Shown here one piece after another: positions 36,292 through 38,501 of a stretch of 39,299 nucleotides of DNA. The stretch is taken from sequence record PP079212.1. One strand, 5' to 3'. Position 1 is the stretch's first letter, and each line of letters begins with the position of its first letter. The notes beneath the pieces were generated by a model that worked only from the letters and a program-made list of their open reading frames with translations, made no database searches and was not told the origin of the DNA. The position numbers were made by a program, and so were the translations under genes. This stretch comes from Escherichia phage phiHAO2-2.

Positions 36292-36741
36292 ATGCTCGAA
36301 TTTTTAAAGAGAGCGGCTCCGTGGTTACTTGCAGCAGTGATGTTTGCTGGTGGCTACCACACCGCTAACAATAAGTGGGAGGCTAAGGTCAATGCAGAAT
36401 ACACCTCGAATCTTAAGGCATCGGAAGATACAAGGCTTGCTGTCCAAGCTGAAGTCAACAAAGTGTCCAAACGGTTTCAGGACGAAATGTCCTCGCTGGA
36501 AGGCAGCACTGATAGGATTATTGCTGACCTTAAGTCTGACAATAAGCGGCTGCTCATCCGAGTCAAACCTACGAGTGGAACCACGCAAAGTGACGGTCGA
36601 TGCTTCATTGATGGTTACGCCGAACTTGACGAACGAGATGCTAAACGTCTTATCGCCATCGGAGTGAAAGGAGACAAGTGGATTAAGGCCCTTCAAGACA
36701 CTGTGAGAGCCTTACAGCAAGAGAAGGAGGTGACGCATTGA
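36292..36741 (+). CDS. i-spanin (Rz-like, gp18.5)
   Basis: 149 aa with N-terminal transmembrane segment. MLEFL...[20 protein letters not shown]...ELD.RDAKR....GD.WI.ALQDT.R.LQ is collinear with T7 gp18.5. Confidence 0.88.
36437..36667 (+). CDS. o-spanin (Rz1-like) lipoprotein embedded in the +1 frame of Rz; start codon uncertain
   Basis: The +1 frame inside Rz encodes ...[18 protein letters not shown] (lipobox-like LTISGC, Cys codon at 36551-36553) followed by a short Pro-containing tail to stop 36665-36667. No in-frame ATG upstream of the lipobox; TTG 36437 is one candidate start. Confidence 0.4.
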   Translation: MLSKLKSTKCPNGFRTKCPRWKAALIGLLLTLSLTISGCSSESNLRVEPRKVTVDASLMVTPNLTNEMLNVLSPSE

Positions 36742-38501
36742 GTAAAGACTTAGTGGCGCGTCAGGCGCTAATGACTACCCGTATGAAGGCAGACTTCGTG
36801 TTCTTCCTGTTCGTCCTGTGGAAAGCTCTTAGCCTACCAGTACCAACCAGATGCCAGATAGATATGGCCCGCAAGCTATCGGCTGGGGACAACAGGCGTT
36901 TCATCCTACAGGCGTTCCGTGGTATCGGGAAGTCCTTCATTACGTGTGCATTCGTAGTCTGGAAACTATGGAACAACCCAGACTTGAAGTTCATGATTGT
37001 GTCGGCCTCAAAGGAACGAGCCGATGCTAACTCCATCTTCATCAAGCGAATCATCGACCTCATGCCTCAGCTTCAGGAACTCAAACCTAAGCAGGGGCAG
37101 CGAGATGCGGTTATCAGCTTCGACGTTGGACCAGCCAAACCAGACCACTCACCTTCGGTTAAGTCCGTTGGTATCACTGGTCAGTTGACTGGTAGTCGTG
37201 CTGACATCCTGATTGCCGATGACGTGGAGGTTCCAAACAACTCAGCGACTCAGGCTGCACGAGACCGTCTGTCAGAGCTTGTGAAAGAGTTCGATGCTAT
37301 CCTGAAGCCCGGAGGCACAATCATCTATCTGGGTACTCCTCAGAACGAGATGACCCTGTATCGTGAGCTGGAAGGTCGTGGGTACACCACTACTATCTGG
37401 CCTGCTCGTTATCCACGCGACAGGAAGGACTGGCAGTCTTACGGCGACCGTCTGGCTCCTATGCTTCAGGCAGAACTGGAAGAGGACCCTGAGTCCTTCT
37501 ACTGGCGTCCGACCGACGAGGTACGCTTCGATGATACGGACCTGAAGGAACGTGAGTTGTCATACGGCAAGGCTGGCTTCGCTCTACAGTTCATGCTTAA
37601 CCCGAACCTGAGTGATGCTGAGAAGTACCCTCTGAAGCTCCGTGACCTTATCGTAGCCGACTTGGACCCAGAGTCTAGCCCAATGGTATACCAATGGCTT
37701 CCTAACCCTCAGAACAAGCGTGAGGACGTTCCTAACGTTGGGCTCATGGGTGATTCATACCACACGTATCAGACTGTAGGTTCTGCCTTCAGTTCGTACA
37801 CCCAGAAGATTCTGGTCATTGACCCTAGTGGTCGTGGTAAAGATGAAACTGGTTATGCGGTACTGTACCAGCTCAACGGCTACATCTTCGCTATGGAAGT
37901 TGGCGGTATGCGAGGTGGCTATGAAGACTCTACGCTGGAAGCCTTGGCTAAGATTGGTCGTAAGTGGAAGGTCAACGAATACGTCATTGAGGGTAACTTC
38001 GGTGATGGCATGTACCTTGAGCTATTCAAGCCTGTAGCTTCCCGTATTCATCCTGCTGCTGTAACTGAAGTGAAGAGTAAGGGTCAGAAGGAACTCCGCA
38101 TCTGTGACGTTCTGGAGCCTATCATGGGGTCTCACCGACTTATCGTTAACGCTGCTGCTATCGTCCAAGATTACCAGTCTGCCTCTGATAAGGATGGTGT
38201 TCGTAACCCTATCTACTCTCTCTTCTACCAGATGACACGTATCTCTCGTGAACGTGGAGCATTGGCACACGATGACCGACTTGATGCGCTGGCTATCGGT
38301 GTACAGTTCTTCGTTGAGTCTATGGCGAAGGATGCCAACAAAGGCGAACGTGAAGTCACTGAGGAATGGCTGGAAGAGCAGATGGATAACCCACGGAAAG
38401 GCTTCGAGTCCATCCACACGGAGTTCTGGGACAATGGGGTCCGGGTAACTCACGATACGGACGACGAGCTGGGACTAGGGTCCTACGTTACGTTCCACTA
38501 G
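36738..38501 (+). CDS. Terminase large subunit (gp19)
   Basis: 587 aa (T7 gp19 is 586 aa). Near-identical blocks ([113 protein letters not shown]). Apparent TTG start at 36738 with AAGGAGGT 6 nt upstream. Confidence 0.97.

Follow-up and report, generated by a model that had tools for sequence, protein, structure and literature searches.

Sequence record PP079212.1 of Escherichia phage phiHAO2-2, a stretch of 39,299 nt referred to below as the window, carries a large terminase gene (gene 19) and a gene for the virion assembly protein gp7.3 that both lie behind non-ATG start codons (Table 1). The genome of phiHAO1-1 is 100% identical to the window over a 1.1-kb stretch round the terminase start, K1F and many other Kayfunavirus genomes share 96-97% identity with it across the same stretch, and for the gp7.3 region the identity to this Kayfunavirus group is 94-95%. 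Judged by these sequence identities, the window is a K1F-like Kayfunavirus of the T7 supergroup (Autographiviridae, Studiervirinae). The terminase product has the composition of a T7-type large terminase, an ATPase N-domain and an RNaseH-like nuclease domain, with PF03237 spanning residues 61-176 and PF22530 residues 361-468; it matches phrog_38 from residue 8 (E = 3.5e-131) and the solved structure PDB 8DGC (E = 4e-247). The product of gene 7.3 is short and basic, has the conserved M-G N-terminus and SGGG-x-x-I/L C-terminus, and is encoded just upstream of the adjoining portal gene (gene 8); it matches PF11653 (VirionAssem_T7) as well as phrog_1320, the latter over residues 1-82 (E = 9e-24). 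The gene-7-like ORF that precedes it is annotated in PP079211 as host range and adsorption protein. Ahead of the terminase, an Rz1/o-spanin gene corresponding to K1F gene 18.7 is embedded in Rz in the +1 frame (36392-36667, + strand); it opens with ATG 36392 behind a Shine-Dalgarno (SD) sequence (-10.2 kcal/mol), and its product has a lipobox-like TISGC motif.

Table 1. Genes and initiation signals at the terminase and gp7.3 loci of the window.
Feature	Position	Strand	Remarks
SD TAAGGAG of gene 7.3	17813..17819	+	duplex -9.1 kcal/mol, 21st strongest of 44
GTG initiation codon of gp7.3	17827..17829	+	first canonical start after in-frame TAA 17806
gp7.3 CDS (virion assembly / host range protein), 82 aa	17827..18075	+	PF11653, phrog_1320
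TAA stop of upstream gene-7-like ORF (17430-17834)	17832..17834	+	overlaps gp7.3 codons 2-3 (GTGGGTAA)
Rz-like spanin CDS (gene 18.5)	36292..36741	+	phrog_1327, E = 3e-60; end overlaps terminase start
SD AAGGAGGT of gene 19	36724..36731	+	perfect 8-nt SD
TTG initiation codon of large terminase	36738..36740	+	first start codon after in-frame TAA 36684
Large terminase CDS (gp19), 587 aa	36738..38501	+	PF22530, PF03237, phrog_38, T7 gp19, PDB 8DGC
TGA stop of Rz (gene 18.5)	36739..36741	+	ORF 36292-36741; overlaps TTG as TTGA
First in-frame ATG of terminase, codon 12 (rejected alternative start)	36771..36773	+	start in some database records

The terminase frame is shut upstream by TAA 36684, and TTG 36738 is therefore the first canonical start that the frame can use. 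The original prediction had placed this TTG 6 nt after an SD and in overlap with the Rz stop, which is exact: the spacer gacgca (36732-36737) separates AAGGAGGT from the TTG, and the Rz/terminase junction reads aTTGA, a start and a stop in overlap. The claim that the terminase ORF has no ATG before codon 12 was likewise borne out, the second in-frame ATG being codon 16 (36783). The duplex of AAGGAGGT with ACCUCCUUA amounts to -13.0 kcal/mol, tied second strongest among 44 gene starts that were located with the help of the annotations of phiHAO1-1 and K1F. Exact copies of AAGGAGGT occur five times in the window against 1.14 expected, a count reached in 0 of 100 shuffles, and all five are on the + strand, 5-8 nt ahead of a gene start. 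Every + strand TTG was also scored by the duplex of its upstream 18 nt with the 16S 3' end; a single one of the 522, namely 36738, attained -12 kcal/mol or better. At both the terminase and the gp7.3 start the codon is of the ATG/GTG/TTG type and the first after an in-frame stop, with complementarity to the 16S 3' end 5-9 nt upstream.

Comparison with T7 pointed to the same position. The TTG-initiated product is 65% identical to T7 gp19 in an alignment that runs from residue 1, so the prediction that this homology begins ahead of the first ATG was correct. M1, S2, R8, A10 and L11 are invariant between the two proteins, and M12 and M16 of the window are Val and Leu in T7. The T7 reference record (NC_001604) starts gene 19 at a GTG behind TAAGGAGG, with no in-frame ATG between this start and the conserved FLFVLWK motif. 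Residue 1 is likewise where the alignment with PDB 8DGC begins, a solved full-length homologue of 586 aa (MSQSQEAKNAL...), and the first query residue in tblastn matches of about 75% identity or more lies between 1 and 8. Counting against this start, residues 2-11 of the terminase differ within the K1F-type phages (K3Q/H, V6A, Q9R, A10E), so that purifying selection on this tail is weak.

The terminase start was further surveyed in 83 loci: the window, T7, K1F and 80 viral contigs related at 63-99% identity. The conserved CQxDM...GKS motif served as anchor, from which the frame was walked upstream to an SD-backed start; a few of the surveyed loci were mis-scored or truncated, and those mis-scored by the automatic best-SD rule (L031, L039, L050-L052, L079, L093, L126 and L128) were dropped or corrected by hand. 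Nearly all of the 83 loci have one strongly SD-backed start at a shared aligned position, with 32-41 codons from there to the anchor, and the codon found there is ATG in 44, TTG in 22 and GTG in 17. Single-linkage clustering at 90% amino acid identity yielded 10 clusters, with non-ATG terminase starts in six of them and cluster-weighted shares of 6.3 for ATG, 2.85 for TTG and 0.84 for GTG (non-ATG, 37%). One T7-type contig (L084) carries ATG in the exact context of the T7 gene 19 GTG. Scanning of the entire viral collection for the K1F-type context returned 16 genuine terminase starts, each of them TTG, including two contigs (L176 and L183) whose upstream sequence differs; codon 12 is GTG, not ATG, in another of the 16, L177 (= L011). 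Rz ends on the codon ccT (Pro) in the "accTTGA" variants, which keep TTG although an ATG there would be silent for Rz. This pattern scan of viral contigs found no natural ATG or GTG variant of the K1F-type terminase start; three ATG matches were discarded as chance matches in unrelated genes.

The predicted start of gp7.3 at GTG 17827 after AAGGAG is strongly supported by its SD, by an ATG-free ORF and by start swaps among relatives. The spacer between TAAGGAG and the GTG is 7 nt long, and the ORF (82 codons) contains zero ATG codons. As a consequence of this composition, the only methionine of gp7.3 would be the initiator decoded from GTG. In the 80 loci retrieved via the adjacent portal gene, the SD-backed start takes the same aligned position and the conserved Gly2 comes right after it in every lineage, and GTG 17827 of the window aligns with the ATG-Gly2 of T7 gp7.3. 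The start is ATG in all lineages outside Kayfunavirus and GTG in Kayfunavirus. The context aaggagattaaYc-NTG-ggtaaatc occurs with GTG in 21 contigs, with ATG in one and with TTG in one, and never with a codon that is not a start codon. Read at the level of sequence, this exchange of GTG, ATG and TTG in a fixed context is a natural start-codon swap, which pins the initiation site.

Other starts were noticed along the way. A third non-ATG start in the window, absent from the original prediction, is likely that of gene 4.3 (54 aa; 12344-12508, + strand), where ggagga (-9.3 kcal/mol) precedes GTG 12344, the start that K1F AM084414 has too; the orthologue in phiHAO1-1 has ATG at the same position, another natural swap. 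The capsid assembly (scaffold) gene of phiHAO1-1 (L087, PP079211; 20906-21256) is annotated with an SD-less GTG and a product of 116 aa. The window holds at the gene 9 (scaffold) position an ATG-initiated ORF of 316 aa (19703-20653), K1F gp9 has 294 aa, and the phiHAO1-1 scaffold CDS looks truncated or disrupted.

The non-ATG starts described here are ordinary and were previously recorded in the T7 and K1F reference annotations. The TTG of gene 19 and the GTG of gene 7.3 are already annotated in K1F AM084414 and in PP079211 (phiHAO1-1), and NC_047808 (vB_EcoP_F) has gene 19 at the same TTG position. A second K1F record (DQ111067/NC_007456; L003 2023-3750) takes gene 19 from the ATG of codon 12. 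The same choice was made for the Citrobacter phages SH3-5 (ORF45), where TCAGGCGCT was given as the "SD" of a terminase of 577 aa, against 587 aa for the terminase of Dev2 (PMC4925675). That the terminase starts at ATG 36771, the TTG and its SD being coincidental or serving a short upstream peptide, thus has two independent annotations on its side, along with the fact that ATG is the commonest start codon. We nevertheless regard it as highly improbable. Neither 36771 (-2.5 kcal/mol) nor 36783 (-2.0 kcal/mol) is preceded by an SD, codon 12 is GTG (Val) in L011/L177 and Val in T7, the conserved residues R8, A10 and L11 lie upstream of the ATG, and the distance from the start to the CQxDM anchor is 32-41 codons among homologues of all lineages, compared with about 27 for a start at codon 12. 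A dual use of the locus, in which the full-length protein from TTG would be accompanied by an isoform 11 or 15 residues shorter from Met12 or Met16, would agree with the in-frame internal ATGs close to the terminase start and with the nested products that T7-like phages make elsewhere (gene 4A/4B). The internal ATGs are devoid of SD sequences, however, Met12 is not conserved and nothing points to a function for the shorter form, which makes this arrangement very unlikely too. A frameshift fusion of Rz and terminase was also considered and rejected: the terminase frame opens only at 36687, and no slippery heptamer was seen by eye in 36687-36738.

With TTG 36738 retained as the terminase start, the sequence comparison indicates that the starts in NC_007456 and in SH3-5 are probably placed 11 codons too late, leaving products about 10-11 residues shorter than those of AM084414, Dev2 and phiHAO1-1. 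The chief value of the result lies in annotation quality, namely in truncated terminase records that a TTG start would extend to 587 aa, and a corrected N-terminus matters for the cloning or modelling of K1F-type terminases.

SD strength, positional homology to T7 gp19 and gp7.3, conservation across relatives and natural swaps all give strong support to the two start-site calls. The reading that we favour, with a probability of roughly 0.88, is that terminase and gp7.3 are made by ordinary SD-led initiation at near-cognate TTG and GTG codons read by the initiator fMet-tRNA. GUG and UUG are known to be read by the initiator tRNA and to give an N-terminal Met, at 10-100% of the AUG level in reporters (bioRxiv 10.1101/063800). 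The literature search for T7-like gp19 found no N-terminal sequencing, N-terminomics or initiation-site profiling, and for T7 it found no initiation-site profiling. Sequence and comparison place the start of the terminase at TTG 36738, 6 nt past a perfect 8-nt SD, and that of gp7.3 at GTG 17827, 7 nt past TAAGGAG. Both genes show the overlap of stop and start that characterizes translational coupling (TTGA at 36738-41; GTGGGTAA at 17827-34), and ribosomes that end Rz or gene 7 probably re-initiate at the overlapping start, in addition to de novo binding. For terminase and Rz, it is the geometry of the overlap that suggests such coupling, against which stands the 21-nt gap between genes 18.5 and 19 of T7. 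Start position and SD would stay fixed while the start codon changes between lineages, and the identity of this codon may be weakly constrained in low-demand late genes, so as to drift or to be mildly tuned from lineage to lineage. Any drop in output caused by TTG would be offset, at least partly, by the very strong SD, and the combination of a weak codon and a strong SD may set a moderate output.

For 36718-36775, folding predicts a hairpin (cauugagu/acuuagug plus flanking pairs) around the TTG and the 3' part of its SD (dG -14.7 kcal/mol, z = -2.33), a stability equalled by 5 of 200 shuffles. Phages of the LSKDL subgroup have the hairpin, those of the LSQDL subgroup have another MFE structure, and neither compensatory changes nor covariation were seen. 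If formed, a hairpin over the SD 3' end and the TTG would fit translational coupling, which gives a weak hint in that direction. In view of the changed structure in LSQDL and the missing compensatory changes, a regulatory hairpin that hides the SD 3' end and the TTG was not relied on.

The suggestion that came with the original prediction, that non-ATG codons may tune the expression of low-copy proteins, is plausible and consistent with the data. In its strongest form, the codons would be selected throttles that keep a potentially harmful nuclease/ATPase and a six-copy tail protein low or late. Several findings fit this. Beside the non-ATG gene 19 starts in six of the 10 clusters (37% by cluster weight), about 8 of 25 N-terminal families of the terminase start with a non-ATG codon, against 7-14% of annotated T7-like genes (rough binomial P = 0.007-0.03), and the portal gene starts with ATG in essentially all loci. 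TTG is found in all 16 K1F-type contigs, those included in which an ATG would leave the Rz protein unchanged (ccT TGA), T7 gp7.3 is present in only 6 copies per virion (PMC11784390), and GUG and UUG reach 10-100% of the AUG level in reporters. The neighbouring Rz gene, scored by the same method, however lacks an ATG start in about 18% of its loci and in 7 of its 25 N-terminal types, and because this rate is similar, the enrichment is not specific to the terminase; strong as it is against the portal gene and the genome-wide rate, it is not clearly different from Rz, and terminase-specific enrichment was set aside as only suggestive. The pairing of TTG with one of the strongest SDs of the genome points the opposite way, and UUG equalled AUG in vitro in an optimised initiation region (PMC5499595). 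Furthermore, gp7.3 has ATG as its start in the lineages outside Kayfunavirus, near-identical phages inside the genus differ in having GTG, ATG or TTG, and the 16 TTG contigs diverge too little for the missing ATG variants to be significant. A throttle of this kind is possible but doubtful; one specific to the terminase is not the better fit to the data, in which weak selection and drift are inseparable.

A related view, in which the terminase start would be a recurrent dial, with ATG, GTG and TTG switched many times over a fixed SD and Rz junction and the non-ATG codons favoured as limiting or delaying accumulation, appears unlikely. The protein so limited is both a nuclease and the ligand sensed by host Avs-type immune receptors, and a link of the start codon to immune sensing is speculation. 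The closest solved homologue, PDB 8DGC, is from a complex related to Avs sensing of large terminases (bioRxiv 10.64898/2026.08.25.746987), by which the terminase with the start codon discussed here is also a host immune ligand. T7 itself (NC_001604) has six annotated GTG starts (genes 2.8, 6.3, 7.7, 17.5, 19 and 19.2); these genes are non-structural or minor, and no major virion protein is among them. As it stands, close relatives differ freely in their start codons at genes 19 and 7.3. No new mechanism follows from the non-ATG starts, and the natural start-codon variants could serve as swap experiments on terminase dosage.

Set beside known systems, SD-led initiation at TTG and GTG in the window is closest to that of K1F AM084414, phiHAO1-1 (PP079211) and NC_047808, with which it shares an identical SD, spacer and TTG at gene 19 and an identical SD and GTG at gene 7.3; nothing of substance separates it from AM084414-type records, whereas K1F DQ111067/NC_007456 differs in its start at the codon-12 ATG. 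T7 gene 19 is the orthologue and resembles the window in having a non-ATG start right behind a strong SD and no usable early ATG. Contrary to the window, the T7 gene starts with GTG instead of TTG, a 21-nt gap separates T7 genes 18.5 and 19 in place of the TTGA overlap, and the gp7.3 start is ATG in T7 and GTG in the window. Translational coupling through overlapping stop and start codons of the ATGA/TGATG type is known from the trp operon of E. coli, and relatives of the window read ATGA, ATGnnTAA or TAATG at the Rz/terminase junction. As in trp-type coupling, the upstream stop overlaps the downstream start in the window, over 4 nt (TTGA) or 8 nt (GTGGGTAA); the restart codon, however, is TTG or GTG here, and the strong SD would also allow independent initiation. 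The infC gene of E. coli, an example cited in bioRxiv 10.1101/063800, starts with AUU and is autoregulated by a feedback loop via IF3 discrimination. By analogy, a weak start codon may be a means of setting the expression level in the phage genes as in infC, but the latter combines a non-canonical AUU with IF3 feedback, whereas TTG and GTG are canonical alternatives and no feedback is known or suggested for the phage genes.
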